Notes: generated by a model not told the origin, from the letters alone. Counted from the stretch's first letter, positions 26,579 to 63,401 are shown. The stretch is 64,000 nucleotides of DNA from Candidatus Kaiserbacteria bacterium RIFCSPHIGHO2_01_FULL_53_29 (GCA_001781125.1 MFKT01000029.1:4040-68039); one strand, 5' to 3'. A program made the numbers and translations.

Positions 26579-27703
26579 TCATACAATTTCCAAAGACCGC
26601 AACGCGAGTCCTGCGGCGGTGGCGTATTGAAGCGATGTCCGACGATTGATAGGAGGAATGTACTGATCGAATGTACAAATATGTTGCCAGATATCTCCGA
26701 TTGTGGTTGGCGCTTGTACGCGCCCCGCAATGTAATCCGCAAGACCGTTCAGATTTGAGCTGCCCCCGACCAAGATCACAGCCCCCACGGGCGTCATGCG
26801 ATCGCCCCGTTCATTTCTGCGCGTGTCCCAGTAGTGATAATGGCGCGTGACCTCATCCGCAAGTGCAGAAGCAATTCCCATGATCGCGTCGAGGCCGGGA
26901 GATTTGGTGCCGCCCTCGGGGAGAAGTCCCTGATCGTTGCGAAAGGCCATGGCAGATTCAGCGGACATGGAAAGCTTCTCCATCAGCGCACGAGTGATCC
27001 CGTCGCCTCCCACCTCGACCGTCGATGTGAAAATAGGAATACCGCGCTTGAGGACCGCAAAGCCGGTGCGCGCCCGCCCGAAATCCACGAGCAACGTGAC
27101 GGGCTCATCGGATTTTCCTGATGAGACGGTGCGCGCGATGGAGCGCGCTTCGATCTCAAGCGAAAGAAGTCCGATGCCTGCCGCACCGAATGCGGCAATG
27201 TAATTTTCAGCGAGTTCGCGGGGAAAGACCGCAACGCCGATCTCTTGTCCTTCCCCTTCGTCACGCTCTTCTATGACATCAAAATCAAAGATCGCCGCGG
27301 AAGGCGCGATCGGGACCCGGCCTTCAAATCCGAATTCGATCATCTGCAACACGTCCTCGCGGGTCGTGGCATCCGGTACATGCATCTCGAAAACGTATGC
27401 GGCTTCCTCGGGAAGCGCTGCGTGTGCATACTCGACCCCTCCGAGATTTTTCTTGACTCTGTTGAGAGATTGCGCAAGCGCAGGAATATCTTTGATCGTT
27501 CCATTGACGACGACACCCTCGTGCAGAGGCTCTTCTCCGTATGTTTGCACGCGATACGCGTTGCTGGATGGCGAGAGGACAAGCCATTTGATCGATGCAT
27601 CAGAAATATCGATGCCGGCAGCACGGGGAAAGAGCCGTACGGGTGTCGGGAACCACCGCGCGAGCGCGTTTGAAAAGTTATGCAATCCGCCTGAAAGCTG
27701 CAT
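26579..27703 (-). CDS. pilM: type IV pilus assembly protein PilM (actin-like ATPase fold)
   Basis: GIDISDASIKWLVL start, DFG.A.TGFAV, ILVGGSSNLNGL motifs typical of PilM. Confidence 0.75.
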   Translation of the reverse strand: MQLSGGLHNFSNALARWFPTPVRLFPRAAGIDISDASIKWLVLSPSSNAYRVQTYGEEPLHEGVVVNGTIKDIPALAQSLNRVKKNLGGVEYAHAALPEEAAYVFEMHVPDATTREDVLQMIEFGFEGRVPIAPSAAIFDFDVIEERDEGEGQEIGVAVFPRELAENYIAAFGAAGIGLLSLEIEARSIARTVSSGKSDEPVTLLVDFGRARTGFAVLKRGIPIFTSTVEVGGDGITRALMEKLSMSAESAMAFRNDQGLLPEGGTKSPGLDAIMGIASALADEVTRHYHYWDTRRNERGDRMTPVGAVILVGGSSNLNGLADYIAGRVQAPTTIGDIWQHICTFDQYIPPINRRTSLQYATAAGLALRSLEIV

Positions 27704-36564: not shown

Positions 36565-36981
36565 ATGAAAAAACTCACCAAGAGGGGTTTTACCCTTATC
36601 GAATTACTCGTTGTTATCGCTATTATTGGGATTCTTGCGTCGATCGTGCTCGCCTCGCTCAACACAGCTCGTGTAAAAGCCCGCGACGCGCGGCGCCTTG
36701 CTGACGTAGATGCGATCAAGAAAGCTCTCGCCCTCTACAACAACGACAATAATGTCTATCCGGTGTTTGCGGCGAGCACAACCATCACGGGAGCAGATGC
36801 CGTCTCAACGGCACTCGTCGAAGCTGGTTCTATCTCCACGGTACCGTCAGATCCGCAGGGGGGAACGAATACATACCACTACAAGAGCGATGCCACAGGA
36901 GGCACTTACTGGATCGGATTCTGTATGGAGAATGCCAATAATAACCACGTACAGGGCTGCAACAACTTCACTACTCCGTAA
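36565..36981 (+). CDS. type IV pilin / pseudopilin with prepilin N-methylation site
   Basis: KRGFTLIELLVVIAIIGILASIVL class III signal, Cys pair near C-terminus. Confidence 0.8.
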   Translation: MKKLTKRGFTLIELLVVIAIIGILASIVLASLNTARVKARDARRLADVDAIKKALALYNNDNNVYPVFAASTTITGADAVSTALVEAGSISTVPSDPQGGTNTYHYKSDATGGTYWIGFCMENANNNHVQGCNNFTTP

Positions 36982-37537: not shown

Positions 37538-37572
37538 TAGCTACTAGCCACTAGGGTTTAGCCACTAGTGAA
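37538..37572. repeat. left arm of imperfect inverted repeat (TAGCCACTAG x2)
   Basis: tagctactagccactagggtttagccactagtgaa; same arm recurs at 50719..50750. Confidence 0.7.
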
Positions 37573-37910
37573 GAGAGTAATTTGTTCAGCATTCGCATCG
37601 TCTCATTCAATAGACCAGCCGTTTTCGAGACTTCAACGCGGCTTACAAATTGTAACTTCTCGGCAAGTATTAGATGGGTCTCCAATTCCGCACCGGAACC
37701 GAACGCTACCCTTAGAAATTGCACATACTCTGCACGATGCTTGCGTGCAAAACCTTCGGCAATGTTTGCGGGAATCGAGACCGCAGCTCGCCGCATCTGA
37801 CTTATAAGTCCGAACATTTCTTCTTTTGGGAATTTTCGCGTGAGTCGATACACTTCAGCAACAAGTTCTACGCCACGTTGCCATACAATTAAATCTTGGT
37901 ATGACTGCAT
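37551..37910 (-). CDS. four-helix-bundle protein of the 23S rRNA intervening-sequence protein family (PF05635/TIGR02436-like)
   Basis: MQSYQDLIVWQRGVELVAEVYRLTRKFPKEE...IAEGFARK...AFGSGAELETHLILA signature; C-terminus LVAKP-stop encoded by the left repeat arm. Confidence 0.8.
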   Translation of the reverse strand: MQSYQDLIVWQRGVELVAEVYRLTRKFPKEEMFGLISQMRRAAVSIPANIAEGFARKHRAEYVQFLRVAFGSGAELETHLILAEKLQFVSRVEVSKTAGLLNETMRMLNKLLSSLVAKP

Positions 37911-37916
37911 TTTCCA

Positions 37917-37948
37917 GTCGCTAGTGGCTATTGGCTAGTTACTACCAC
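37917..37948. repeat. right arm of imperfect inverted repeat (CGCTAGTGGCTATTGGCTAG)
   Basis: approximate reverse complement of left arm; recurs at 50765..50791; overlaps stop of giant gene A. Confidence 0.7.
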
Positions 37949-40585
37949 GGTTGCATCTTTCGTCCCGCCTGCGAGCGTCTGGCAGTGCAGGAGGAATGTC
38001 GCCTGCGAGAAAACCGGCGACGTGACAGCCGTGCCGCTCACGCTTGTGTTGTAGGAGTTGGCCGCGGTGAAATCCGCCTGATCGGGGCTCGAGATGACAC
38101 ATGATTGCATGCCGGTCGTGACCCAGCCCAAAAGCGCGGTCTTGCCCGAGGCAACGGTCTTGGGGTTGGCGACAAGGATAGTAGAAGGTTTGTTGACTTG
38201 GACGGAGCACTGCGCGCCTGCGGTACGTCCCTGGTCGGTGCAGGTGAGAGCGTAGGTGGCGGTGTTGGCTCCTGCGGGAGGACTACCTATCGTTGTGCTT
38301 GCCACACCTGATTGCGCGCCTGCGGTATCGAAGCCCGAACCCTTGCTCGTGCCTACAGAGCAGGAATACGCGAAGGCTACCATCATGCCGACATCGGCGA
38401 GCTGGGGCTGGCAGGATAATTCGGCCCTGAGCGGAACGAGTGGCGGGGTAGGTGGGGTGGAAGTCGCCGTGCCGGAAGTTACGGTGATGGTTATACTACT
38501 GATAACGTTGCCGTTGGAGGTGAGTTGCACTTGGTACGGGCCGGCAGCTGCGTAGGTATGCGTCTTCGTAAGATTGGCGGGAGGGCAGGTAGCAGCGCCG
38601 CATCCCGAGCCCACGAAATTGGTGCCGTCACCAAAATCAATCGTTGATGGGACCGGTACCATGCCGGTAAAGGTGACCGTAAGGGGTGCGGGACCGGAGG
38701 TTGGATTAGCAGTGAAGTTCGTGTTGGTCGGATTCGGAACGCACTGCCAATTGGTGACGCACTGACCATTCATGACCGGCTGCCACTGTCCGACAGAGCA
38801 GTTTGCAGCAGGTGGAGTCTGCTGCAACTGGAGTTGGCATTGATTGCCGGTGGAGGGCGTGCATTGCTGTGGCTGTTGGGGCGGTGCCGTGATTTGCTGC
38901 TGTTGAACTGGAGCCTGCGGCGCGTACCCCTGCTGCGCGTAGTACTGATTGAGCTGTTGTTGATATTGCTGCTGCTGTTGTTGTTGCTGCTGCTGGTATT
39001 GATACTGCTGCAGTTGGAAATTATATTGTTGCAGCTGCTGCTGGTATTGCTGCTGCCATTGCGCATACGCCTGTGGATCGCTCGGACATTGTTGCGGGGG
39101 CGGAAGAGGCTGCGGGGGCGGTGGTTGATTCAACCCGAGCGCTTTGCCGATCGAGTTCATCATCGAACTCATCGGATTGCCGCCACCGCTACTCGCCGGA
39201 GGACGCGGTGGTTGCTGCTGTTGCTGCGGTTGTTGGAAGGTGCTGTTTATCCTGCAGTCCGGAGGATTGCCACCGTTTGAACATACGGACTGTATCTTAC
39301 AGCCGTTGGCGGGATCGCCGCCGTTCGCGCATTGTTTGGGTGGCTCATTACCCGGCTTGCAGGGAGGCGCGGTACGATCCCTACATATTGTTCCGGGTGG
39401 CGCTTCAGATGACCCCTTTGTGCAGAGGCCAGATGCATCGCATTTGAATCCCAGACTTTCAATATATTTGCGTTCTGCTTCGTTGGCAGGTCTTGCCTCC
39501 CATTTATTATCTTCTATTCGAGAAATGTCTGTCTTGGTTGTCTCCGATGTTATACCACCCGACACCACTGGGCGTTCCGGAGGAGTAAGTGGTGTCGGGC
39601 TCGTGCACCACTCTGGAGGTGAATCCCTCTTACATGCATCAGCAATCGCAGTGTCGACATCTTTAGAATCCTTGTCCGCGTCCGGATCGGGACTGTACGC
39701 GGCGATTTCTTTGATTTTTACCCCATCGGGGGCCTTAAGCGTGCCGTCTGAATCCACAAGCATTTCATTCGTTGAATTCGTAGGGTCCTTACCGAATGCA
39801 CTATTAATGATATCTTGCTGAGTTTGATCGATGCCACAACCCACGAGGCATGAGGGTTCCCACTTGCCCGTCAAGAAATTTTTTCGCACAGTAAAACCAT
39901 CGCTCGACAATTTATCTACGACCAGTGCCTTGTTTATTCCTTTCGAAATGATAGGGACACATCTCATAACCGAACTTATGGGTGAATATGAAGTTGTTGT
40001 GTCAACGCACGCAGTCGTTTTACACGTACCTGGCGATACCTTCGGATTCGGTTCAGCTTTGATCTTAAGGGTGCCGTCTGGCTTAACAGTGACAGTGGCG
40101 GATTTCCCAACGCATTTGAAATTGCCCGGTTTTGCCGGATCGGGGGCAGCAGCAACACAGTCATCGGAGTTGGGGTCCGTTGGTTTAGCAGCTACCTTCG
40201 TCGTAGCTGCAGTTTTTGCTGTAGCAATCGCAATCCCACATTTATTCAAGATTTCCTCATCGACTTTCGCTTTGGCATCCGCTTCAGCTTTCGCTGTAGC
40301 TTCCGCATCAGCCTTTGCTTTGGCATCTGGCGGAGGAGCTGTGGCGGTAGCTGCTGGTGTCGCTGCGGGAGCTGGAAGCAGGTAGGGGACACCACCAGTC
40401 GACGGCATCGCTTGCGTTCTTGGGGGGGGGATGTCTGCGGCAAGAATGGCTCCGGCAGCCTGCTGCGGTTGATTGCCCGTTGGCATAGGAGTAAAAGATT
40501 GGAGCGCTATCGCCGTGACCGCGAGGGCGGCGAGCAGACCTATCACGGGCAAAACAGCAAAACCCCGGGACGCGGATCGGAACAT
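37928..40585 (-). CDS. giant secreted surface protein A (885 aa): A/K-rich, Cys-containing modules, Q/P-rich low complexity, PKD domain
   Basis: signal peptide; PKD signature FTANPTSGPAPLTVTFTG...DFGDGT...HTY; C-terminal 250 aa near-identical to giant B. Confidence 0.7.
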   Translation of the reverse strand: MFRSASRGFAVLPVIGLLAALAVTAIALQSFTPMPTGNQPQQAAGAILAADIPPPRTQAMPSTGGVPYLLPAPAATPAATATAPPPDAKAKADAEATAKAEADAKAKVDEEILNKCGIAIATAKTAATTKVAAKPTDPNSDDCVAAAPDPAKPGNFKCVGKSATVTVKPDGTLKIKAEPNPKVSPGTCKTTACVDTTTSYSPISSVMRCVPIISKGINKALVVDKLSSDGFTVRKNFLTGKWEPSCLVGCGIDQTQQDIINSAFGKDPTNSTNEMLVDSDGTLKAPDGVKIKEIAAYSPDPDADKDSKDVDTAIADACKRDSPPEWCTSPTPLTPPERPVVSGGITSETTKTDISRIEDNKWEARPANEAERKYIESLGFKCDASGLCTKGSSEAPPGTICRDRTAPPCKPGNEPPKQCANGGDPANGCKIQSVCSNGGNPPDCRINSTFQQPQQQQQPPRPPASSGGGNPMSSMMNSIGKALGLNQPPPPQPLPPPQQCPSDPQAYAQWQQQYQQQLQQYNFQLQQYQYQQQQQQQQQQYQQQLNQYYAQQGYAPQAPVQQQQITAPPQQPQQCTPSTGNQCQLQLQQTPPAANCSVGQWQPVMNGQCVTNWQCVPNPTNTNFTANPTSGPAPLTVTFTGMVPVPSTIDFGDGTNFVGSGCGAATCPPANLTKTHTYAAAGPYQVQLTSNGNVISSITITVTSGTATSTPPTPPLVPLRAELSCQPQLADVGMMVAFAYSCSVGTSKGSGFDTAGAQSGVASTTIGSPPAGANTATYALTCTDQGRTAGAQCSVQVNKPSTILVANPKTVASGKTALLGWVTTGMQSCVISSPDQADFTAANSYNTSVSGTAVTSPVFSQATFLLHCQTLAGGTKDATVVVTSQ

Positions 40586-40662
40586 GCCTCAATCATGCGC
40601 CCCAGCGAGCGCGAGCGCAATGTGAAAATGTGGAAAAGACTGGGTTATGTTATGATGGGGTC

Positions 40663-40854
40663 ATGACAGATGAGGCTCTTACGGACATTGAGCATGCGAT
40701 TGAGAAAGCCACGCCGGATCAGCAGCGACGTTTTCTCGCGCGCCTGCCGCACGTGCTACATCTCGCGCCTGACCAGTATGCTCGAATGAAAGCTGCTGAG
40801 CCGTCATTCGCGTTCTGGAATAATGCCGCTGATGCGGTCTATGACAACCTATAA
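40663..40854 (+). CDS. putative antitoxin of MazEF-like pair
   Basis: small acidic ORF overlapping the toxin start by 14 nt; no direct family match. Confidence 0.4.
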   Translation: MTDEALTDIEHAIEKATPDQQRRFLARLPHVLHLAPDQYARMKAAEPSFAFWNNAADAVYDNL

Positions 40855-41203
40855 GCGCGGACAGATCGTGCTCGTTCCGTTCCCCTTCACTGATTTCTCG
40901 ACGCTCAAACAGCGCTCCGCGCTCGTACTTTCTCCGACCGCATACAATCGCAAACAAAACGACGTCATAATTGTCGCAATCACCTCGCAACTTGAGTCGT
41001 ACAAGAACCGGAAAGACGTTTACCGCATCGACGGACAAGAACAACGTGACTCCGGACTCCCACGACCCGGGATCGTGCGTCCGGACAAAATCACTGTCGT
41101 CGACCAGCGGCTTATCCGTCGCATTCTCGGAACACTTCCGCAGCCGACCGTTGATCGTATCGCGGAGTTGACCGCGCGTGCCATCGGCTACATGCGGGCC
41201 TGA
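40841..41203 (+). CDS. MazF/PemK family endoribonuclease toxin
   Basis: GQIVLVPFPFTD...RSALVLSP...VIIVAITS PemK fold signature. Confidence 0.7.
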   Translation: MTTYKRGQIVLVPFPFTDFSTLKQRSALVLSPTAYNRKQNDVIIVAITSQLESYKNRKDVYRIDGQEQRDSGLPRPGIVRPDKITVVDQRLIRRILGTLPQPTVDRIAELTARAIGYMRA

Positions 41204-41209
41204 TATTCA

Positions 41210-41281
41210 TGCCCTCGCCGGGAATCGAACCCAGATTACGAGCTCCGCAAGCTCGCGTTCTATCCGTTGAACTACGAGAGC
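41210..41281 (-). tRNA. tRNA-Arg (anticodon read as GCG)
   Basis: acceptor GCTCTCG/CGAGGGC, D-arm GTTC-AACGGATA-GAAC, stem CGAGC/GCTCG with loop TTGCGGA; sequence-similar to tRNA-Arg at 25020. Confidence 0.6.
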
Positions 41282-41483
41282 CCTACTACGCTCCGGAAAA
41301 TCCCGGAGCTTCGAAGGACAAGTAATGGTACAAAAAACCACTGCTCGCCCGCCGAAGCTCAAAGACACTTTGAGCGAAGGAGGGAACGACGAGAGCCAAC
41401 GAGAGAAATGTAGCACGTTTGGCCCGCTTGCGCAGGCGCAGGCTTTTTTATTGTTTCTGTAACCACAGACTTCAGCTCCAAAC

Positions 41484-44400
41484 TTACGGCATCACGGTAA
41501 TCACTCCCGACATACCGACTCCTCCCGGAGCGCCATGGAAGCGACAGTAATACGGGTAGGTGCCCGCAGTCGTGAAGGTCCGCGAGAAATTTGCCCCCGG
41601 AGAAAGGCCGGTATCGAAACTTCCGCCATCGGCCGTCACGGTATGTTGCATCGCGCCCGTATTGGTCCATGTCACCGTACTCCCTTTTGCGATAGTTATT
41701 GTGCGGGGTGAAAAGGAGTCGTCCGCCGCGGAGATATTGATGAGGGCCGGACTTGAGCTCGTGTTGGATGTGCTCGATGTGGTTGGCGTGGATGATGTGC
41801 TCCCCGCCCCTGCCGTACCCGTGCTTGCACCAAGCGTGACCGTCACACTCGCGCGCTTGCTCGCTCCCCCCTGCGTCGTGCAATCCAATTGGAACGTCGC
41901 GTTGGATGTGATGGGAGAGGTCGCCGCGGCACCGGTCGTACTTGTGTTGTACGCATTGTCCGCCGTGAAGTCGGCCTGATCGGGGCTCGAGATGACGCAG
42001 GATCGCATGCCGGTCGTGATCCAGCCGAGAAGTGTGGTCTTGCCCGAGGCAACGGTCTTGGGGTTGGCGACGAGGACGATCGAGGATCTGTTGACTTGAA
42101 CGGAGCATTGAGCGCCTGCGGTGCGTCCCTGGTCGGTGCACGTGAGAGCGTAGGTGGCGGTGTTGGCGCCTGCCGGAGGCGCCCCAAGGGTGGCCGTTGC
42201 GGAGCCCGACTGGTCTCCACCCGTATCGAAGCCGGAACCCTTGCTCGTCCCTGTCGAGCAGGAGTACGCAAGAGCGAGAGTCATGCCAACATCAGCGAGC
42301 TGGGGCTGGCATGCGAGATGGGCAGTGAGGGGAATGACCGCGGGAGCGGTGGTGGAAGTTGGGGTGGGATCCGACGTATCCGGAACACATCGCCAATTCG
42401 TGAGACAACTCAAACCTGCGACGGTCGAGCTCGCCGGCTTCCACGAGCCATTCCGGCATTCCGATGCATCGGGTTGGTCGGGTCGTGCGGGACACTGCGC
42501 ATTATTGCGCACGCACTGCCAACTCGTGAGACAACTCGATCCTGCGACGGTCGAGGTCGCCGGTTTCCACGAGCCATTTAGGCATGTCGCGGGATTAGGC
42601 TCCGCCGGCTGCGCGGGGCATTGCGGGGTGGGGTTGGGCACACACTGCCAGGCAGTGATGCACGCGCCATTCATCGTCGGCTTCCATGAACCGACGTTGC
42701 AGCTGGACGCCGGAGGTTGCTGTTGCAATTGCTGCTGACACTGACCGCCCGTCGCGGGCTTACACGGCAAGGGCTGCACGGGCGCCGTTGTTTGTGATGG
42801 TGGCGGAGGCGTCAAGCCCTGTTGTGCGTAATACCGACTCAACTGTTGCTGGTACTGTTGCTGTTGCTGATACTGCTGCAGCTGATAATTGTATTGCTGC
42901 AACTGCTGCTGATATTGCTGCTGTTGTTGGGCGTAAATTTGTGGATCGGTGGAACAAACGGGAGCTTCCGGCTGGGGCGTGAGGCCCTTGGCCAAACCCT
43001 CAAGGAACGATGCCAGTGGATTGCCCGGCGGCTTCTTCTGCGACTGCGGAATCTCCGGCATCTTCGGCGCTCCGCCTCCTCCGCCAGCTCCTTTTCCATC
43101 ACCTCCCGCTCCACCTCCCCCTTTACCAGTTCCGCCTTTTTCGGCTCCGGCTTTTGCGGCTTTTGCGTCCGCTGCATCTTTCGCGGTTTTTGCCTCCTTC
43201 GCAGCTTTTGCGTCTGCCGCGTCTTTTTCTGTTTTTGTTTTGGTGGTATCTGGGGGCTCTTTACCCTCATCTTTGACACAACTCCCGTCCGAAGCACATG
43301 TGTATTCGTTATCCTCAAGATACTTTTTCTGCTCCTCCGAGTCCGCCTTGGCTTTCCATTTACCTTCTTCGTCTCTCGTTGCGATTATGTCGTCAACTGA
43401 TCCTTTTGAACAACTTCCATCGGAGCCGCAAGTGTACCCGCTGGCCTCAAGGTATTGCTTCTGCTCGGCAGATTCAGCGCGGGCCGTCCATTTTCCATTC
43501 CCATCGGAGCGAGCGACAATGTCATCAACCGAACCTTTGGAGCAGGCGCCGCTAGAGCTGCATGTATATCCATTGTCTTCGAGGTACCTCTGTTGCTCTG
43601 TTGTTTCTGCTTGTGCGGTCCAGTTACCATTCCCTTCAGAGTGGGCGACGATATCATCGACGCTTACAGGTTCTGACGGCGCGACCGAGGGTTCGATGGC
43701 AGCTGGCATATCTGTCGCACGAAGCCCGGGATCCCGCACTCCTGCGACGTCCCGTCCCCAAAAACTATCCCGCCAGTTAGAGTCAGACGCTCCAGTACAC
43801 GAGCCTCCCGACAAGCATGGATACTGGTTCTCCATTGCATACAGATCATTTTTAATCTGCCCAAGTACAGCATCTCTTTCGGGGTTTGGCGCTCCCCCAC
43901 CATTCATGAAGCCACGCTGATCTGAGAGCATTTTTTCTCGAAAAACAAGTTCGTTATATTTGCCGACATCGCTCACGGTGGGATTTTGCGCAAGCGCTGC
44001 AGAATACGCGGCGTTGATATCCTCTCCGTAGTTGGCATGCAGCGTTTGCTTTTCCGAATCTGAAAGTCCGGTATACCAATTTAAACCTCTGTCGGGCGAC
44101 CCTGCGGAGTATCCTTGGAGCTCTGAACCGCTCTGCGCGTCCCATGTGGCAGCGGGAAGCTGTTGCCCAGGCAGAGGATTTTCCTGTATCGTGGCGGATC
44201 GATCAGGAAAGGAACCTTCGGCCGGCGGAGGGGAATTAAAATCAAACGCTGGAGCTTGTGTCATGGCTCCCGGCAAATTCTGTGCCCATGTATCGAAGGT
44301 CGTTGCCGCGGCGACACCTGGCTCGAGAGCGGCAGGCGGTGGGTCGGCCGCAGACGAGAGCGGGAATCCGTCGTCGCTACGAGTTGGTGAGATGGGGAGA

Positions 44401-46676
44401 TTGATAGATTGATCACGTGTAATCAACGCCCCAATCTTTTCATCACCGAACTGATCGACGGTACCGTTGTAGCGGCCGGTTAGAGGATCTCGGATACTAA
44501 AGTTATCTCCGTCTCTTGTGATCTCAAGATTCGGTGCCGGCCGATATGTACCGTCTGTTATATCGTTCAGCTTCGAATCGTAGTTCCATCCGTCCTTTGC
44601 CTGTTGGACTGCCTGTTCGACGGTCTGGCCAGACTCGACTGGGATACGCGCGTACTCATCATTGGGTCCGTAGACTGACACCACCGTAGTACCGTCGCGG
44701 AAAGTAGTGCTGCGCACCCCCACGCCGTCGGCGTCGTACCTCGTAAAAGGGTCCATGTGAGATATAGGTATTGAGGTGTCTATTGGATAAGGTGGTCTTG
44801 CTTCACCACCATCCTCGAGCCCGAGGCTAGCAAGCTGTGGAGTAGTGGCGAGAAGCGCATTCATGCGCGCGAGGTCGTCTCGCTGGTTGGAAAGCGAATA
44901 ATCAGAGTCGCCTAATTCTTGCAGTTGTTTCTCCTCAGCAGGAGTCGGGTCTCGATTTTCTGACCTTATCGTGGCGTCAAGCTGGTCGCTTCTGATTTCA
45001 TTCGCATTGATAGTATCATCCAACGCATCAAGCCGAGCAGCATTCTCGCGGTAGCTTGCCGCGGGATCTTGAAGAGCTGTTGCGAGCTCTCCAATGGTAC
45101 CGGAATAGTTGTTTACATTGATCCGATCTCCCGCGGGCGTGATCAGGTAATCGCTATTCTCACCATCACTACCAGTGCGATCAAGGGTGTATCCGTCGGC
45201 AAAGGGGTATGCTTGTCCGTCATCAAAATCGCGAATGTTCAGGTTTCTGTACGCTGCGCTGTCTGGCCCTGCATCAAAATCGGTCGGGCTTGGGTTCACC
45301 CAGCCACCGTTCGCATTTGCTGCAGCGCTGGCTACACTCGGATCAAGTGCGGAGGATGGTTCTGGGGGCAAAATGCTGTCTGTGCCTGGTGCCGGTAAAC
45401 TGCCGGATGACGTCTGTTCGCCCGGCTGTACCAACATAACAGGTCCATCAAAACTATACGGCGCAGTTCCAGGTCCGTTCACTGCTTCGACTGCAGCATT
45501 ATACGCTTGCTGTGATGCGCGATAGCCGAGCTTGGCTTGATTCCATGCCGCTCGAGCTGCCGGATCGGTGGGGTTTTCTTCGAATGCTCGTTGTGCAGCA
45601 TCATATGTTGCGGCCGCTTCAACCGCGCTGCGCTGCGTGTCGGCGATGGTCGGAGCATTTGTGTCCGCAGTCTGTGGCGAAGGCGTTGTAGGCCAACTGC
45701 CATTGAACACCGGAGGTTCTGCGCTGTTTATGTAATCCTGCGTGCTTTGCGCCACCGTCTGCCCAAAACCGCCCTGTGGTTGAGTAGCCGGATTTTCACC
45801 CAAAGACCCGGTGTTTCCGGTCGGATTCTCGAAAGCCGATTGATCGAACGTCGCGTCAGTCCGCTGGTACTCTGTTGTTTGAAATAACGCTGGGTCCGGT
45901 ACCGGAGTTCCCTGGACCGTGGGACTTTGCGGCTGCAGCGTGGCGGTGTCGGTGCGCAACGCATCATTGAGCAGCGCGCTTTCACCCCGCAGCCGTGTAA
46001 GCTGACTTTCTTGTTCCGCAGTAAAGTCCCCGCTTCCCGATTTCGATTGCTCCAGTATTTGTTCGAGCTCGGATATTTCGTTGTTGACTCGGGTGAGCTC
46101 TCTTTGCTTTTCGTCGAGCGCGTTATCAATTTGAGTGTTCGCAGGACCACTCGGAGTCTTCGGCACTGCTGGATCTTCTTCATCAGGAATTTTTGGCATA
46201 CTCGGAATGCCTCCTCCGCCTGACCCGCTCTCTGAGCCTGCACCGGACTTCGGAGTCTGTGTTGCTTTCCATTCTCCATCCGCATCCCTATACTCATCGC
46301 CATGAGCAACGTCTTGGCTAACGCAATGCCCTTTTACATTGCTCGTTCCTACCTCCAACCCCTCGCCGCATAATTTACCGGATTCGCTGTAATTCGGATA
46401 TTTGCATGAGTAGTCGTATGACGATGAGCATAGAGCATCTAGTGATTTATCTCCCCCTGCTTGCGCCAGCTGCGAGCGCGCATCGTATGCATATGAAGCG
46501 GCAGCCGCGTCGCGAAATGCCTCCGGAGTTTGCGCGAGCGGCGAGGGGAAGGCATCGCTCATGCTTGCGGAGACGCCGAGAATCGCCGCAAGAATGAGTA
46601 TAAACAGAGAAGAAGCTCCGCGATTTTGAGGACGCCGAGAGTCGGCCGAAGTTTTCTTATGGGGCATGTAGCCCAA
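41484..46676 (-). CDS. giant secreted surface protein B (1730 aa) with repeated Cys modules and C-terminal type-1 copper cupredoxin domain
   Basis: signal peptide; 4x ~35 aa repeat (SVDDIVARSDGNGKWTARAE..EQKQYLE..GYTC..G.CSKG); C-terminus TVTWTNTGAMQHTV...YYCRFHGAPGGVGMSGVITV (His, Cys, His, Met ligands). Confidence 0.7.
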   Translation of the reverse strand: MGYMPHKKTSADSRRPQNRGASSLFILILAAILGVSASMSDAFPSPLAQTPEAFRDAAAASYAYDARSQLAQAGGDKSLDALCSSSYDYSCKYPNYSESGKLCGEGLEVGTSNVKGHCVSQDVAHGDEYRDADGEWKATQTPKSGAGSESGSGGGGIPSMPKIPDEEDPAVPKTPSGPANTQIDNALDEKQRELTRVNNEISELEQILEQSKSGSGDFTAEQESQLTRLRGESALLNDALRTDTATLQPQSPTVQGTPVPDPALFQTTEYQRTDATFDQSAFENPTGNTGSLGENPATQPQGGFGQTVAQSTQDYINSAEPPVFNGSWPTTPSPQTADTNAPTIADTQRSAVEAAATYDAAQRAFEENPTDPAARAAWNQAKLGYRASQQAYNAAVEAVNGPGTAPYSFDGPVMLVQPGEQTSSGSLPAPGTDSILPPEPSSALDPSVASAAANANGGWVNPSPTDFDAGPDSAAYRNLNIRDFDDGQAYPFADGYTLDRTGSDGENSDYLITPAGDRINVNNYSGTIGELATALQDPAASYRENAARLDALDDTINANEIRSDQLDATIRSENRDPTPAEEKQLQELGDSDYSLSNQRDDLARMNALLATTPQLASLGLEDGGEARPPYPIDTSIPISHMDPFTRYDADGVGVRSTTFRDGTTVVSVYGPNDEYARIPVESGQTVEQAVQQAKDGWNYDSKLNDITDGTYRPAPNLEITRDGDNFSIRDPLTGRYNGTVDQFGDEKIGALITRDQSINLPISPTRSDDGFPLSSAADPPPAALEPGVAAATTFDTWAQNLPGAMTQAPAFDFNSPPPAEGSFPDRSATIQENPLPGQQLPAATWDAQSGSELQGYSAGSPDRGLNWYTGLSDSEKQTLHANYGEDINAAYSAALAQNPTVSDVGKYNELVFREKMLSDQRGFMNGGGAPNPERDAVLGQIKNDLYAMENQYPCLSGGSCTGASDSNWRDSFWGRDVAGVRDPGLRATDMPAAIEPSVAPSEPVSVDDIVAHSEGNGNWTAQAETTEQQRYLEDNGYTCSSSGACSKGSVDDIVARSDGNGKWTARAESAEQKQYLEASGYTCGSDGSCSKGSVDDIIATRDEEGKWKAKADSEEQKKYLEDNEYTCASDGSCVKDEGKEPPDTTKTKTEKDAADAKAAKEAKTAKDAADAKAAKAGAEKGGTGKGGGGAGGDGKGAGGGGGAPKMPEIPQSQKKPPGNPLASFLEGLAKGLTPQPEAPVCSTDPQIYAQQQQQYQQQLQQYNYQLQQYQQQQQYQQQLSRYYAQQGLTPPPPSQTTAPVQPLPCKPATGGQCQQQLQQQPPASSCNVGSWKPTMNGACITAWQCVPNPTPQCPAQPAEPNPATCLNGSWKPATSTVAGSSCLTSWQCVRNNAQCPARPDQPDASECRNGSWKPASSTVAGLSCLTNWRCVPDTSDPTPTSTTAPAVIPLTAHLACQPQLADVGMTLALAYSCSTGTSKGSGFDTGGDQSGSATATLGAPPAGANTATYALTCTDQGRTAGAQCSVQVNRSSIVLVANPKTVASGKTTLLGWITTGMRSCVISSPDQADFTADNAYNTSTTGAAATSPITSNATFQLDCTTQGGASKRASVTVTLGASTGTAGAGSTSSTPTTSSTSNTSSSPALINISAADDSFSPRTITIAKGSTVTWTNTGAMQHTVTADGGSFDTGLSPGANFSRTFTTAGTYPYYCRFHGAPGGVGMSGVITVMP

Positions 46677-46723: not shown

Positions 46724-46990
46724 CTAGGCTGCGAGCGCGCGGAGCTGCCTGGCAGCGCGGGATTTCATACGAGCGGCCGTGTTGCGGTGGATGGTGCCGT
46801 TCTTGGTAGCCTTGTCGACGGCCTGATAGAGCACTTTGAGCTGCCCCTCCGCGTCCCCCGAGTTTTTTCCGCCCACAAATCTGTCCATCTGCTTCACTGC
46901 CATTTTCATCGCCCCTTTGCGCCGCACGTTGTGCACGCGACGGCGAAGCGCGACGCGCTGTGCTTTCTTTGCCGACCTCGTGTTTGCCAT
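46724..46990 (-). CDS. rpsT: 30S ribosomal protein S20
   Basis: MANTRSAKKAQR...basic helical S20 pattern. Confidence 0.9.
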   Translation of the reverse strand: MANTRSAKKAQRVALRRRVHNVRRKGAMKMAVKQMDRFVGGKNSGDAEGQLKVLYQAVDKATKNGTIHRNTAARMKSRAARQLRALAA

Positions 46991-47138
46991 TGGACCGGAT
47001 GCTACCGCATCTTCCCCTTCGGCGCAACAATGCGAACTGTTTGCTCTGCGTGCACCAATCGCCCCAAAAGTGATATTCCGTAACGTGCGCTACCGCGCAA
47101 TCTGGGAATATGAGATATGTACACCCTGGAAAACAACT

Positions 47139-47729
47139 TCATCTTTCCTTACGCAAACGAAAGCGCTCTCGTACCCACCCATCGTTTTCTATGGATTCAA
47201 CAACTACATAGAGCACGTCTTTCCCGATCTGCAACTCCGCTTTCGCGAGTATAATAAACTCCTCACAATCGTATGGATACACCCAGACACTGTCCTGCAA
47301 GCGCAAAAAGCCGCACTCTTGCATGAGGCGTCGAATACGATCGCGTGTCGCTCTTCTTTGCTGCGGGATATCAAACATCACGATGCGGTATCGCCCATCC
47401 CATCGCTTCGGTTGATGCGCCGTGAGCTTTGCTTTCTCCTGCTCCAGCAGAAGCGCCTGCCGACCTGCACTAGTAAGCTCAATATATTTCTTACCGTTGC
47501 GCTGTACGAACCGGACATGCCCCTTGACGATAAGACGCGAAACCGCAGTCCGAGCTTGGAATGCAAGTTTGTAACGTTTCTTGCCAATGATATGCGGAAG
47601 GATTTGAAAGACGTTTGGTGCGAGCGCCGCCACGGCAATAATGCCCGCGGCTCCTATCACAGAGAGTACCGCATCTTTCACGTACCGCTTTCTTCGCACC
47701 CCACGAGCGTGAGATTCCGTCTTCCCCAT
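47139..47729 (-). CDS. PaaX-like protein (winged-helix + Cas2/VapD-fold C-domain) with N-terminal hydrophobic segment
   Basis: WDGRYRIVMFDIPQQRRATRDRIRRLMQECGFLRLQDSVWVYP resembles PaaX C-domain/Cas2 fold; no cas genes or array nearby. Confidence 0.4.
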   Translation of the reverse strand: MGKTESHARGVRRKRYVKDAVLSVIGAAGIIAVAALAPNVFQILPHIIGKKRYKLAFQARTAVSRLIVKGHVRFVQRNGKKYIELTSAGRQALLLEQEKAKLTAHQPKRWDGRYRIVMFDIPQQRRATRDRIRRLMQECGFLRLQDSVWVYPYDCEEFIILAKAELQIGKDVLYVVVESIENDGWVRERFRLRKER

Positions 47730-47765
47730 ATTCCCTATTGTACGCTATGGCGCAATGTAGGGAAT
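47729..47765. promoter_or_regulatory. inverted repeat TATTCCCTA-N19-TAGGGAATA at start of PaaX-like gene (candidate operator)
   Basis: 9 bp perfect arms in divergent region between 47139..47729 and ruvA. Confidence 0.3.
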
Positions 47766-47844
47766 ATCGAATACGGAAATTGTGTCGTGGACAATGCGCG
47801 GGAGAGCGTTTCGCGCGAGTCGTTGATGCACTATACTTGGGTTT

Positions 47845-48417
47845 ATGATAGGACAACTTACCGGCATGGTCTTTGCAGTGCGCATTGGACATGCAATCAT
47901 CTCTGCAGGTGGTGTGGGGTACAAAGTATTTGCAACACGCGAATTGCTCGCGACACTCCGGCCCCAGAAAGAGGTGGCGCTCTGGACTCACTTGGCGGTG
48001 CGCGAGACCATCCTCGATCTGTACGGTTTTTCCACCGAAGAAGAGTTGCGGCTGTTCGAACTTCTCCTCACGGTCTCCGGCATCGGGCCCCGTTCCGGTC
48101 TCGCTATCCTCGATATTGCATCGGTCGAGACGCTGCGCTCTGCGATCGCGGGAGGGAACGCATCGTATCTCACCAAAGTCTCCGGTATCGGCAGGAAAAC
48201 AGCTGAAAAAATCGTGCTCGAGTTGAAGGACAAAGTCGGCATCGGAGGGGAAGGAGGTGCCTCAGCGCTCCGTCATGACGAAGAGGCCCTCGAAGCAATG
48301 AAAGCACTGGGCTATTCGCAAGGAGAGGCACGCGATGCGCTTAGAAAAGTACCACAAGACGTAGAGCGATCAAGTGATCGATTACGTGAGGCACTTCGAA
48401 TTTTGGGCAGACAGTAA
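47845..48417 (+). CDS. ruvA: Holliday junction helicase subunit RuvA
   Basis: MIGQLTG...SGIGPRSGLAIL HhH motifs, C-terminal domain III. Confidence 0.9.
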   Translation: MIGQLTGMVFAVRIGHAIISAGGVGYKVFATRELLATLRPQKEVALWTHLAVRETILDLYGFSTEEELRLFELLLTVSGIGPRSGLAILDIASVETLRSAIAGGNASYLTKVSGIGRKTAEKIVLELKDKVGIGGEGGASALRHDEEALEAMKALGYSQGEARDALRKVPQDVERSSDRLREALRILGRQ

Positions 48418-56493: not shown

Positions 56494-58161
56494 CTAAATC
56501 GACAAATTCACCGTCACGTAGTTTGTCACGTGCGAACCGTCGGGCGCCAGACACGAAATCGTAAAGACGGTTGTGCTCGTGAGAGCCACTGTGGCAGCGC
56601 CGCCTGAAAGCGACGATTGGTTGAAGCTGCCGTCAGGAGAGGTTTCGGTGCAGTTGGTAACGCCTTTTGTACTCCAAAAGATCGAGGTGCGTGCGCCAAG
56701 CGGGACAGAAGCAGGCACTGCCCAGATGTCTACTTTCGGCGTGACCGCAGGAGTTGTCGTTGCCGCCGGCGCAGGTACTGTGGGAGTAGGCTGCTTTCGT
56801 ACTGGAGTCTGTTGGAGAACAGGTTTTTGCGGCACAGGGGCGGGAGGTGGAGGCGGGGTGCCGACAGGATAGCCGCGCCATGAGCAAAGTCCGTCGAAGA
56901 AAGACGGGGTGACGATCTTTGAGAGGAAATTAGTTGCCCATGGACGCGCCCGGCACCACTGCCCGACGATTCCCTGAGGCTGCGCGCCACCGAACGCATC
57001 AGTACCGTAGAAACCCGCGACTTCGATGTTGTTTTGTATATCACGCGTACCGGCTATCACGGTCGCACCTCTGTCCGTCGCCAAAATATCGCCTCGAGCC
57101 CCACCCTGCGGGGGCGCACTACTGTACACGTACGTCGACGTTGCAAAAACGATACGGGGATTTTTCGTGGTATCGAGCACCGGAGTTGTGTCGGCAACTT
57201 CCGCGTTCGTGGGAGCTGGCACGACGCTGCCTGATGAGACGGAAACACTAGGAGCGATCGTACCGGTGAAAGAACTGCCGGTCAAAGAGAGGCCAGTGTC
57301 GCCCGACGAAACACCATTACTGACTGAAGTCTCGGCATTGGTCGACGCCCCGACGCCGACAGCGCTGGGCGCGCCGGAAAGAATGGGTGAGCCGCCTGTG
57401 AGGCTTGAGCCTCCCGTAAGAGAGTTCGTATTCGCGAACGGATTCAGATCGGCGCTCGTATTTGTATTCGCTGCTGTGTTCAGAGCTGGATTCGTGTTCG
57501 CGGCCGGATTTATTGCTCCGCTCAGATCGGGAGATTGCGTGCCCCCTAAGAGCGAACCGAGGATGCTGTTCGAGCCACCCAAACCGGTGAGCCCCCCAAG
57601 GGGATTTGTTGTCGGCGCCACATACTGGGCACAGGGATTTCCGTTGATCTGCGAGATATCGGATGTTTGGAACGTTTGCGTGCAGCCTTGGGCGCCTGTC
57701 GGTGGTTGCGGTGGTTGTTTCTGGTCGTCTTTCTTGCTTTGCTGCATGAGCTTGCCCACAAGATCGCCCAAGGCTTTCATGAGCTGATCCATGCCGGCTG
57801 CATTTCCTCCCTTACCTTTCTCGTCGGTGAACGAAACTCCCTTGCACGTATTAGTATGCGAGCAAAAGCCTGTTACGCCCCGCGGATCCTTACAAGGACA
57901 CAGCCACGCACTTTTTGTCGGCGCATCGCATTTCTTCGTTTTGGGGTTGAAGTCAGGTCCGCAAGGACATGGCGCTTCAGCTTTGGGCACACACGCCAAG
58001 TCAGCCGTTTTTGGATTTGCCCAATTAAGTCCCTTTGCGGCCGCTTCAGGCAGTCCAGCCTGAATTGCGCCCTGCATCGCAGTTTGCGCATTCGTGTGAG
58101 TTGGAAATATAAACAAAACCGCAACAAGAACCACAGCAAAGGAGATTCGCCGACTCACCAT
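56494..58161 (-). CDS. hypothetical secreted protein, Cys-rich N-domain, Ser/Thr/Gly/Asn low-complexity middle, Pro-rich linker
   Basis: cleavable signal peptide (...THTNA-QT); no catalytic motif. Confidence 0.5.
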   Translation of the reverse strand: MVSRRISFAVVLVAVLFIFPTHTNAQTAMQGAIQAGLPEAAAKGLNWANPKTADLACVPKAEAPCPCGPDFNPKTKKCDAPTKSAWLCPCKDPRGVTGFCSHTNTCKGVSFTDEKGKGGNAAGMDQLMKALGDLVGKLMQQSKKDDQKQPPQPPTGAQGCTQTFQTSDISQINGNPCAQYVAPTTNPLGGLTGLGGSNSILGSLLGGTQSPDLSGAINPAANTNPALNTAANTNTSADLNPFANTNSLTGGSSLTGGSPILSGAPSAVGVGASTNAETSVSNGVSSGDTGLSLTGSSFTGTIAPSVSVSSGSVVPAPTNAEVADTTPVLDTTKNPRIVFATSTYVYSSAPPQGGARGDILATDRGATVIAGTRDIQNNIEVAGFYGTDAFGGAQPQGIVGQWCRARPWATNFLSKIVTPSFFDGLCSWRGYPVGTPPPPPAPVPQKPVLQQTPVRKQPTPTVPAPAATTTPAVTPKVDIWAVPASVPLGARTSIFWSTKGVTNCTETSPDGSFNQSSLSGGAATVALTSTTVFTISCLAPDGSHVTNYVTVNLSI

Positions 58162-61223: not shown

Positions 61224-61656
61224 ATTCGTTAATCAGAGTGATGATACGCCCGTCATCCACAATGTCGAATCTGATATTAGTGGCGTGTGGCGGGATCGCA
61301 CCCACTACCCGCTCGGGCCACTCCAGAACAATGAGATTCCCCGAATCCTGAAGCAGCTTTTCCCAACCTAACACCTCAAGCTCGTGTGCGCTTTTCAAGC
61401 GATATGCATCAATATGAATTAAACGCTGAAATTTCTGTCCTTCGAGCTTATATATCTTTTCGAGCACAAAAGTCGGGCTCGTCACCACTTCCTCAACTCC
61501 GAGAGCCTTCGCGATTCCCTGCGCAAAAGTGGTCTTCCCCGCACCGAGCTCACCGGAAAGCGTTGCGACCACGGCTTGTTGCCGAGGCTGCAGATGAGAA
61601 ACAAATTCTGCCGCATGAGCCTGCAATTCTTCAGCTGAATTGGAACGAAGTTCCAT
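61204..61656 (-). CDS. tsaE: tRNA threonylcarbamoyladenosine biosynthesis ATPase TsaE
   Basis: Walker A LSGELGAGKTTFAQG, TSPTF motif. Confidence 0.8.
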   Translation of the reverse strand: MELRSNSAEELQAHAAEFVSHLQPRQQAVVATLSGELGAGKTTFAQGIAKALGVEEVVTSPTFVLEKIYKLEGQKFQRLIHIDAYRLKSAHELEVLGWEKLLQDSGNLIVLEWPERVVGAIPPHATNIRFDIVDDGRIITLINEYGEEKI

Positions 61657-61694
61657 ATGCAGAGTGTACCAAAGGCGCGCTGAGATACGTTACA

Positions 61695-63401
61695 ATGGTG
61701 GGAATGGCTACTCAGTTCAATGAGAAGAAGCAGGATGAGCGACTGCATGACCTGCGCGGGCGCGAGGAAGAGCAGCTCGCTGAAATGCTGTCGGGCAAAT
61801 ACGGCGTCGAGTACGCCGATCTCACATCCAAGGCGATCGACACCGATGCGCTGCGGCTCGTCGAAGAAAAGATCGCGCGTGCAGCGGAAGTGGCAGCCTT
61901 TCACAAGGTCAACAAAAATCTTTTTCTCGCGATGCGCTCCCCCGAGCGCCCCGATGCCGTGCAGGTGATACAGAATCTGGAGCACTTGGGCTACGAGGTG
62001 CGCCGCTTCATCGTATCGCGTGCATCGCTCGATCACGCATGGGATCGCTACCACGACATTTCCTACGCGACCGAGACAGAGGCCGGTATCTTGACGCTCT
62101 CCAACAAAACCATTCAGGAGATGCTGCAAAAATTGAAGAAGCTCGAAGATGTGCGGCTCGAGATCCAATCGCACGCAGGTTCTAAAGACACGCACCGCAT
62201 CTCGCGCGTGCTGGAGATCATCATGGGGGGTGCCTTATCCTTGGGCGCATCCGACATTCACCTGGAGCCCGAGGAAGAGGCCGTGCGCATGCGCTATCGC
62301 CTGGACGGCGTCTTGATAGAGGCCACGATGTTCGATGCTCCGACCTATGCGCTCATCTCGTCGCGCATCAAATTACTCTCCGGTCTCAAACTCAACATAA
62401 AAAGCGCAGCACAAGACGGCCGCTTCTCAATTGTCGTCAACGAAAAAGAGATCGAGATACGCACAAGCGTCCTCCCCGGTGCCTACGCCGAGACGATCGT
62501 CATGCGTGTCTTGGATCCGACGACGATCGCGCTTCCCATGGAAGCGCTCGGCTTCGACAAATACCTCATGGAAATATTCAATAAGGAAATTGCGAAACCC
62601 AACGGCATGATATTGAACACCGGTCCGACGGGCTCCGGGAAGACGACGACTCTCTATGCTTTCTTGCGGCAGGTGCACAATCCGGGAATAAAGATAGTGA
62701 CTATCGAAGACCCGATAGAGTATCACTTGCCGGGTATCGTGCAGACGCAAGTGTCCAAGGACTATTCTTTCGCGCTTGGGCTCCGCTCGACACTGCGCCA
62801 AGACCCGGATGTCATCATGGTCGGCGAGATCCGTGATGCTGAAGTGGCATCAACCGCCGTGCACGCATCGCTCACCGGTCACCTCGTATTCTCGACACTC
62901 CACACCAACGATGCCGCCGGTACTTTCCCCCGCCTTATCGACATGGGCGTGAATGCCGACATCCTGGGCGCGGCGGTCACGGTGGCAATGGCACAACGCC
63001 TCGTGCGCCGCTTATGTCCGCACTGCCGCGTCTCGCAGCCCTTGAGCGCAGAAGATAAAAAACTGATGGAGCCGCTTCTGCGCAACATTCCCCACGCCGA
63101 TGAATTGCCCGCCAATCGCGACACGATGTGGCTACCCAAGGGCTGCGAGAAATGCGGCGGGCTCGGATACAAAGGCCGCATCGCGGTCGTCGAGGTCGTG
63201 CTCATGGATCACGAGATCGAAGATTGTGTACGACACACCTCAAGCGAGCGCGACATTTGGAAAGCGGCGACGCACCAAAAGATCCGGCGCATGGGACAAG
63301 ATGGTATCGTGAAAGTATTGCAGGGCGTGACCTCGCTCGAAGAACTCGGTCGCGTTGTTGACCTACATGACGAAGTCATGTTGGAAACTATCGGTAACTA
63401 A
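61695..63401 (+). CDS. pilB: type IV pilus assembly ATPase PilB (GspE family)
   Basis: Walker A GPTGSGKTT, Asp box, His box, tetracysteine CPHC...CEKC; ORF 61386.. trimmed to Met after tsaE. Confidence 0.85.
   Translation: MVGMATQFNEKKQDERLHDLRGREEEQLAEMLSGKYGVEYADLTSKAIDTDALRLVEEKIARAAEVAAFHKVNKNLFLAMRSPERPDAVQVIQNLEHLGYEVRRFIVSRASLDHAWDRYHDISYATETEAGILTLSNKTIQEMLQKLKKLEDVRLEIQSHAGSKDTHRISRVLEIIMGGALSLGASDIHLEPEEEAVRMRYRLDGVLIEATMFDAPTYALISSRIKLLSGLKLNIKSAAQDGRFSIVVNEKEIEIRTSVLPGAYAETIVMRVLDPTTIALPMEALGFDKYLMEIFNKEIAKPNGMILNTGPTGSGKTTTLYAFLRQVHNPGIKIVTIEDPIEYHLPGIVQTQVSKDYSFALGLRSTLRQDPDVIMVGEIRDAEVASTAVHASLTGHLVFSTLHTNDAAGTFPRLIDMGVNADILGAAVTVAMAQRLVRRLCPHCRVSQPLSAEDKKLMEPLLRNIPHADELPANRDTMWLPKGCEKCGGLGYKGRIAVVEVVLMDHEIEDCVRHTSSERDIWKAATHQKIRRMGQDGIVKVLQGVTSLEELGRVVDLHDEVMLETIGN

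Follow-up and report, generated by a model that had tools for sequence, protein, structure and literature searches.

The locus analyzed here lies in a 64,000-nucleotide (nt) stretch of DNA, referred to as the window (MFKT01000029.1:4040-68039, assembly GCA_001781125.1), from Candidatus Kaiserbacteria bacterium RIFCSPHIGHO2_01_FULL_53_29, taken to be a groundwater member of the Paceibacterota within the candidate phyla radiation. It carries two large genes, designated A and B, which flank a toxin-antitoxin (TA) pair and a tRNA gene and share a related C-terminal region. Scanning for open reading frames (ORFs) and translation placed gene A at 37928-40585 on the minus strand, encoding 885 amino acids (aa). 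The mechanical ORF of gene B covered 41484-46676 on the minus strand, with a TTG start at 46676 (1730 aa); the most likely start was the ATG at 46667, as in public gene calls, which gives a gene of 41484-46667 and a protein of 1727 aa. BLASTP showed that the two proteins were paralogous (318 bits, E 1e-95, 53% identity across 445 columns). A first-pass annotation, made from the sequence alone, had reported two paralogous ORFs at these positions; both the ORFs and the paralogy were confirmed, with the minus strand added and the start of B moved to 46667.

Organization of the A and B proteins

From its N-terminus, A consisted of a signal/anchor segment, a Cys-rich variable region, one 44-aa Cys unit, a Gln/Tyr-rich (Q/Y) helix, one Cys hairpin, a PKD-like insert, and a pair of immunoglobulin-like (Ig-like) domains, Ig1 and Ig2; the protein ended (...VVVTSQ) straight after Ig2. 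B was organized into a signal peptide, an orphan region of about 1000 aa, three 44-aa Cys units, a Lys/Ala/Glu/Gly-rich spacer, a Q/Y helix, three Cys hairpins, an Ig-like pair, a Ser/Thr linker, and a cupredoxin domain, within which the C-terminus (...GVITVMP) was located. For residues 4-1192 of B (the N-terminal 1189 aa), no homolog was detectable among 5.8 billion clusters.

Two kinds of Cys module were distinguished, a 44-aa unit (YLExxGYxC..G.CxKGS) and a hairpin (C..GSWKP...C.T.WQC), and each was present in three copies in B and one in A. The three tandem 44-aa units of B (VDDIVA..YLE..GYTC..G.CSKGS) were located at 43266-43661 on the minus strand, and the single unit of A at aa 354-392. 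The three Cys-stapled β-hairpins of B, at 42372-42737 on the minus strand, formed a 126-nt tandem repeat at 78% identity and appeared as three hairpins in the structural model. In total, A contained 32 Cys and B 33, one of which was a copper ligand. The Cys richness, together with the basic and hydrophobic segments seen at both translated N-termini, fits exported, disulfide-bonded proteins. No sortase anchoring signal (LPXTG, hydrophobic segment, basic tail) was found at the C-termini of A and B. S-layer proteins are usually Cys-poor, and an S-layer role was thought unlikely because of the high Cys content. The three features that the first-pass annotation had ascribed to both genes, a Q/Y stretch, a Cys-containing module, and a block running from AELSCQPQ to DQADFTA, were all real.

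Predicted structure of the C-terminal region

AlphaFold2, with a 24-sequence alignment, predicted that the 167 residues common to both proteins formed two all-β Ig-like sandwich domains, with a mean predicted local distance difference test (pLDDT) of 97 and a predicted template modeling score (pTM) of 0.80. The pair lay at 37931-38428 on the minus strand in A (aa 720-885) and at 41835-42326 on the minus strand in B (aa 1451-1614), where pLDDT was 95-98 in a larger model. A Foldseek search of the PDB with the pair returned 42 matches at E<=1e-3, all of them tandem Ig or MG domains, including Fc receptors, alpha-2-macroglobulin, SraP, and the grappling-hook protein GhpA (E about 1e-4).

The larger model, covering residues 1205-1730 of B (74 sequences), showed a helix, three Cys-stapled hairpins, the Ig pair, a disordered Ser/Thr linker, and the cupredoxin. 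The Gln/Tyr-rich stretch, which had been taken for low complexity, was a single helix of 41 residues (pLDDT 84-91), and the spacing of Tyr and Leu read from its sequence, 3-4 residues, was coiled-coil-like. This helix and the adjoining hairpin made up a second, weaker common stretch, found at 38726-39088 in A (helix at 38930-39079, plus the Cys hairpin) and at 42627-42956 in B (helix at 42822-42944, plus the first Cys hairpin), both on the minus strand. The blastn identity of the two was 65% over 363 nt, and the motif was kept family-wide.

Two further domains were specific to one protein each. The PKD-like domain of A (38504-38719, minus strand) occupied the place of the two extra hairpins of B and was borderline, scoring 23.4 bits against the PF00801 cut-off of 23.5. 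The C-terminal domain of B (41493-41777, minus strand) was a plastocyanin-like type-1 copper domain, or cupredoxin, scoring above the Pfam cut-offs [PF13473: 37 bits (cut-off 27); PF00127: 34.8 bits (cut-off 21.2)]. Its alignment with plastocyanin 1bxu (E 6.6e-12) brought the His, Cys, and His ligands into register, and a Met lay in the conserved CxxHGxPGGxGM loop of the domain, a loop also seen in small stand-alone relatives. The domain did not reach the cut-offs of the NCBIfam equivalog models; it is therefore classed as a cupredoxin, though not as an ortholog of any named plastocyanin. The searches for PKD and cupredoxin domains and the structure prediction proposed with the first-pass annotation thus returned a clear cupredoxin, a borderline PKD, and a predicted Ig pair.

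The common DNA block

The blastn alignment of 38043-38464 in A with 41941-42359 in B, both on the minus strand, showed 79.4% identity across 422 nt (E 3.5e-104). The two copies were direct repeats on the same strand, 3.9 kb apart. In a codon alignment of 167 codons (501 nt), identity was 75%, with a synonymous divergence (dS) of 0.93 and a nonsynonymous divergence (dN) of 0.17. Within the block, a 240-nt core (38036-38275 in A, aa 771-850; 41934-42173 in B, aa 1502-1581; minus strand) was 86.3% identical, with dS about 0.43 and dN 0.08. Single 60-nt windows peaked at 95%, and the longest exact match between A and B was 36 nt.

The common block is real and far above chance. The description of its DNA as near-identical (about 90%) did not hold, since only the core reached 86% and the exact run did not exceed 36 nt. 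A block of about 250 aa had also been described; such a block was present, and its well-conserved part was limited to about 165 aa, the Ig pair. Identity restricted to low-complexity codon repeats had been named as the outcome that would count against the observation. It peaked instead in the non-repetitive Ig-like domains, which rules out a low-complexity artefact.

A family at a conserved genomic site

A word-index search with the Ig-pair block gave 22 matches, all of them "hypothetical" or nameless and one from a Candidatus Paceibacterota metagenome-assembled genome (MAG). A profile search of 1.84 billion representatives retrieved 303, 753, and 1969 proteins at E<=1e-30, 1e-10, and 1e-3, respectively. 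Most family members were 600-900 aa long and carried the module at the C-terminus. The common tail is thus that of an undescribed family of Kaiserbacteria and related Paceibacterota, and a literature search found no description of the A/B family.

Some members had an extra end domain after the module, either a Kre9/KNH-like Ig domain or a subtilase S8. The domain following the Ig pair was interchangeable: B of the window carried a cupredoxin there, P0123 a subtilase, and L001 (about 7590-7956), L004, and L005 a Kre9/KNH-like Ig domain in their B-position genes, while A-position genes had none. The cupredoxin was found in none of the 168 family members retrieved.

Species-representative genomes were scanned for related loci with an alignment of eight sequences as query. 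Thirteen syntenic loci were obtained from MAGs of Kaiserbacteria and related Paceibacterota (handles beginning with L). The conserved order was DoxX, SpoU, LTD, Mur ligase ... B-like gene, tRNA-Arg, A-like gene, DUF5673-like gene, pilin ... EamA. Two copies of the large gene were present in L001, L002, L004, L005, and L009, and one copy, at the A position, in L006, L010, and L012; in L013, one copy was visible and the contig stopped inside it. The tRNA-Arg(GCG) gene lay directly upstream of the A-position gene in nine related loci and between the copies in every two-copy genome.

The N-terminal leaders were specific to position. The leader of B in the window matched that of L001_0 (MPHKK.SADSRR..RGASSLF), another (MVFHESLN.ERKFS) was common to L002_0, L004_0, L005_0, and L009_0, and the A-position copies had a common leader of their own. 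The duplication was therefore older than the split of these species.

Evidence for gene conversion of the C-terminal module

Comparison with the closest genome, L001, showed that the Ig pairs of A and B were closer to each other than to the orthologs at the same positions. Amino acid identity was 75% between A and B of the window, 66% between A and L001_1, and 59% between B and L001_0; the proportion of synonymous differences was 0.54 within the genome and 0.68-0.74 between orthologs. In the identity matrix and tree, the two copies of the window, of L002, and of L009 paired by genome, while L004_0 and L005_0 grouped by position.

Informative-site quartets of the window and L001 favored the grouping of paralogs by 74:26:17. 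The signal changed along the gene: the ratio was 42:3:7 from Ig1 to early Ig2 and 1:6:2, favoring orthology, in the last 40 residues. For L005 and L004, the quartets of a central tract grouped the paralogs by 38:0:0, while its flanks favored orthology. Of the codons for the same amino acid in A and B, 77% (53/69) had the same third base in the core, compared with 49% (28/57) in the flanks (Fisher p=0.0015); between the window core and any other genome the figure was 45-60%. Within-genome DNA identity of the tail was 70% in L001, 78% in L005 with a tract of about 330 nt at 95-98%, and 100% across 780 nt in L009.

On these comparisons of sequence, episodic gene conversion acting on an older tandem duplication is well supported. 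Judged by its decay, the conversion event in the window genome is an old one, and the stretch of 79-86% DNA identity would result from the duplication together with that conversion. The suggestion of recombination or gene conversion in the first-pass annotation was thus upheld over evolutionary time by the quartets, the third bases, and the tracts; as a claim that the block is a good substrate at present, it was not.

Proposed history and function

We consider it probable that A and B arose by an old tandem duplication, belong to a lineage-specific, disulfide-rich family of surface or envelope proteins, and have tails that have repeatedly undergone gene conversion. The proteins of this family have a conserved N-terminal export/anchor segment (basic, Gly, hydrophobic), a fast-evolving middle of very variable length, a C-terminal module of about 290 aa, and an optional end domain. 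In the predicted structure, the module consists of a short amphipathic helix, the Gln/Tyr-rich helix (41 residues, its Tyr and Leu spaced in a heptad-like manner), between one and three β-hairpins stapled by Cys, and the two Ig-like domains. The duplication preceded the split of several Kaiserbacteria species, and the copies have stayed on either side of tRNA-Arg(GCG). The C-terminal module has been overwritten repeatedly between copies, and the mosaic tracts left behind are fresh in certain genomes and decayed in that of the window; a MazEF cassette was inserted later beside the tRNA.

By their architecture, A and B may serve as surface adhesins or display scaffolds, with the tail as a common functional or assembly module. 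The Q/Y helix may mediate oligomerization, and the cupredoxin of B may act as an extracytoplasmic one-electron carrier.

Several points weigh against this reading. Since L009 is a MAG assembled from short reads, its 100% tract could in principle be an artefact of assembly. The quartets are unrooted, and part of the signal between the window and L001 could stem from conversion in L001, although the third-base excess is specific to the A/B pair of the window. Taken alone, the longest run of synonymous-identical codons was not significant in a permutation test (p about 0.10). The Foldseek matches of the Ig pair are to generic tandem-Ig structures (E about 1e-4, TM 0.3-0.5) and imply no function, and no Pfam or NCBIfam model covers the C-terminal module. 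Two topologies also fit: the protein may be anchored in the membrane with a distal tail, or it may be cleaved and retained through its tail.

Alternative readings

The N-termini of the family could also be read as class III (prepilin) signals that lack Glu5 and are processed by prepilin peptidase, in which case A and B would be giant pilin-like proteins carried on type IV pili; we regard this as unlikely. The consensus obtained from 119 family members, R-G-[ASTF]-S-[IV]-L-A-A-L-V-x-V-A-[IL]-L-G, places a Gly before the hydrophobic stretch and another at +14, and A reads RG/FAVLP (the slash marking the putative cleavage site). The N-termini fitted that of the cognate pilin in register, with a profile score of 25.9 at shift 0 and <=9.9 at twelve other shifts, although the RG motif, present in 53 of 129 members, served as the anchor of this test, which inflates the score. 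Other secreted proteins of the window lacked the consensus and had ordinary signal peptides; the N-terminus of B, however, is also compatible with a simple Sec signal peptide (SAS/M after the h-region). Against prepilin processing, PF07963 (N_methyl) and TIGR02532 missed A, B, and eight relatives even at E<=10, while the true pilin of the window matched both models. Glu5 was absent, and the hydrophobic segment was followed by low-complexity Pro/Ala sequence and by no pilin globular domain. The pilin gene is a conserved neighbor, and PilM and PilB are encoded in the window, but the neighborhood is weak evidence because the whole region is syntenic, housekeeping genes included.

It is a long shot that the whole family (at least 300 clusters) consists of Glu5-less giant pilin-like proteins that are cleaved after Arg-Gly and sit at type IV pilus tips, where host cells would meet the Q/Y-helix/Ig-pair module together with exchangeable end domains (cupredoxin, subtilase, or Kre9-like Ig). 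If this were true, A and B would be alternative tips, and conversion would keep the common assembly module compatible while the rest diverges.

The second alternative is an active variation system, in which the block would be a present-day substrate for frequent recombination or conversion that produces surface variants or chimeras. The copies are direct repeats on one strand, 3.9 kb apart, and conversion has been demonstrated in the clade. Recombination efficiency drops steeply with divergence, and exact matches of a few tens of bases are needed. With 79% identity, exact matches no longer than 36 nt, and dS about 0.43 in the core, the two copies make a poor substrate for recombination. The exchanged part is the conserved tail, so conversion homogenizes rather than diversifies the two genes, and their variable parts, the N-terminal two-thirds, had no similarity able to recombine. 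Neither an invertase, inverted repeats, silent cassettes, nor out-of-frame simple repeats were found at the locus, and no site-specific recombinase was found among the neighboring genes scanned.

Public assemblies were also stable. Gene A was unchanged on 11 public contigs and gene B on 10, from several samples. The window was 100% identical to ENA contig ERZ4903055:k141_1246567, and L016 (ERZ28563591) and L017 (ERZ4903070) matched it throughout A, both TA genes, the tRNA, and the last 4.5 kb (3' end) of B, apart from contig-end artefacts; the three compared contigs were thus identical where covered, although they are consensus assemblies, in which rare variants may be missed. L016 and L017, which are independent assemblies, both ended exactly at 45954, inside B at about codon 240, and in GenBank a gene is annotated for no more than the final 85 aa of B (OGG52485.1, a 99%-identical fragment). 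The break and the partial annotation suggest an assembly break or strain heterogeneity in the 5' third of B, and the latter would agree with active variation. Taken together, frequent present-day variation is improbable, and the idea that the block generates surface-protein variants was not supported: the tract is old (79-86%), the exchanged tail is conserved, and both genes were constant among the contigs.

Independent duplications in separate lineages, with the within-genome likeness due to recent duplication and not to conversion, would agree with the single copies of L006, L010, and L012 and with the by-genome clustering in the window, L002, and L009. However, the position-specific N-termini are conserved across genomes, all genomes with two copies have the tRNA between them, and L004_0 and L005_0 group by position. 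Site patterns also switch between orthology and paralogy within one gene, for which duplication alone cannot account, and this explanation is very improbable. Lastly, a diversity-generating retroelement (DGR), with the block as template/variable repeat pair, was suggested by a PF05635/bAvd-like gene 17 nt downstream of A but was excluded for the window, as no reverse-transcriptase domain was found among the window ORFs scanned against Pfam, the mismatches involved all bases (A 25, C 36, G 35, T 31) and mostly third codon positions with no adenine bias, the NCBIfam DGR-Avd model scored 26.8 against a cut-off of 80 while generic four-helix-bundle models passed, and the Avd-like gene was absent from most syntenic loci.

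Neighboring genes

The TA pair and tRNA reported in the first-pass annotation were both recovered between A and B. A putative antitoxin of 63 aa (40663-40854, plus strand; ORF and gene call, no family match) overlapped the start of a MazF/PemK-type toxin gene (40823-41203, plus strand; PF02452, 64.9 bits against a cut-off of 23.1, E 8.8e-18), for which the public gene call starts at 40841. The tRNA-Arg(GCG) gene was located at 41210-41281 on the minus strand by ARAGORN and scored 62.7 bits with Rfam. A GCG anticodon for Arg is unusual in bacteria.

No counterpart of the MazEF cassette was found in the 13 syntenic loci, and the toxin gene was missing from all 14 related loci, which indicates a later insertion specific to the window genome. 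The cassette stopped 6 nt from the tRNA 3' end. Integrase-type insertion at the tRNA was considered and rejected, there being no attachment-site-like (att-like) copy of the tRNA 3' end beyond the cassette. The spacer flanking the tRNA was a hotspot of small insertions (40586-41209 in the window, 7269-7552 in L004, 7460-8311 in L005); L004 carried a 17-nt extra copy of the tRNA 3' end, an att-like scar, and L005 about 700 nt of extra sequence. In the window, L001, L005, L009, L010, and L013, the tRNA was co-oriented with the large genes; in L002, L004, L006, and L012, it was oriented against them. The tRNAs of L004 and L005 were identical and in opposite orientations.

Downstream of A by 17 nt, a solitary four-helix-bundle gene (23S rRNA intervening-sequence protein/Avd-like) was located at 37551-37910 on the minus strand (PF05635, E 1e-37). 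It was found at the same spot in L003, was absent from the other syntenic loci, and does not belong to the A/B paralog system. The type IV pilin or pseudopilin gene (36565-36981, plus strand; N_methyl, T2SSG, and TIGR02532) was convergent with A and syntenic in related loci. Both large genes had been described as lying next to the pilin gene; A is close to it, on the opposite strand and with the Avd-like gene and a DUF5673-like membrane protein gene in between, while B is 4.5 kb away. The type IV pilus genes of the window were scattered and not clustered: PilM at 26579-27703, the pilin at 36565-36981, and a PilB-type ATPase at 61386-63401.

Elsewhere in the window, a 555-aa secreted protein with no Pfam match (56494-58161, minus strand) had a signal peptide ending ...THTNA/QTA. 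This end resembles a QTAA motif found 10-15 residues past the hydrophobic segment in the A/B family, and by its sequence the QTA-like motif may be a local signal-peptidase site. An ORF of 456 aa at 46836-48206 (plus strand) was rejected as spurious and antisense, its tblastn "homologs" being shadows of the conserved genes beneath; public calls place rpsT (46724-46990, minus strand), a PaaX-like gene (47139-47729, minus strand), and ruvA (47845-48417, plus strand) there. A promoter and terminator scan of 37.4-47 kb gave counts like those of shuffled sequence, and an Rfam scan found tRNAs only.

Significance and comparison with known systems

Attachment to other cells is the presumed lifestyle of candidate-phyla-radiation bacteria, and to our knowledge their surface proteins are almost entirely uncharacterized. 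The locus defines a large unnamed family with a conserved tail module, an unusual N-terminal export segment, and a fixed site beside a pilin gene. Clean concerted evolution in reduced genomes implies that homologous recombination is active there. The phenomenon itself is ordinary, although it occurs in an undescribed family, and current concepts are unchanged; the main value lies in the candidate adhesins and in the correction of the near-identical repeat.

In Helicobacter pylori, the paralogous adhesin genes babA/babB and sabA/sabB undergo concerted evolution by gene conversion. A and B resemble them in their divergent N-terminal parts, in the exchange of a conserved C-terminal part, in their mosaic tracts, and in a within-genome likeness greater than that between orthologs. 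Unlike those genes, A and B are adjacent direct repeats split by a tRNA, the tract is old (79-86%), and no population-level switching was seen in assemblies. They also belong to an unrelated, undescribed family of a monoderm-type candidate-phyla-radiation bacterium.

The bacterial Ig stalk adhesins, such as SraP and GhpA, are, like A and B, exported proteins of large size in which a low-complexity or repetitive stalk is combined with Ig-like domains in tandem. The match to these adhesins was at the level of the fold only (E 4e-4 to 7e-4, 12-13% identity), and A and B lack an LPXTG/sortase signal or C-terminal anchor. The TA pair resembles type II MazEF in having a PemK/MazF toxin with a small overlapping upstream ORF, and it differs from typical MazEF in that the antitoxin belongs to no recognizable family; the cassette has no functional link to A and B.

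The C-terminal 90 aa of B resemble plastocyanin- and amicyanin-type cupredoxins, and the closest relatives were stand-alone "plastocyanins" of 83-195 aa. Small cupredoxins have been proposed as electron donors of NirK in Kaiserbacteria (PMC5581439). No nirK was found in the window. The fusion of a cupredoxin to a surface protein is a curiosity of possible relevance to the extracytoplasmic NirK/cupredoxin electron path that has been proposed for Kaiserbacteria. In contrast to the stand-alone cupredoxins, for which all 28 matches were <=195 aa in length, the domain of B is fused through a Ser/Thr linker to a surface protein of 1727 aa.

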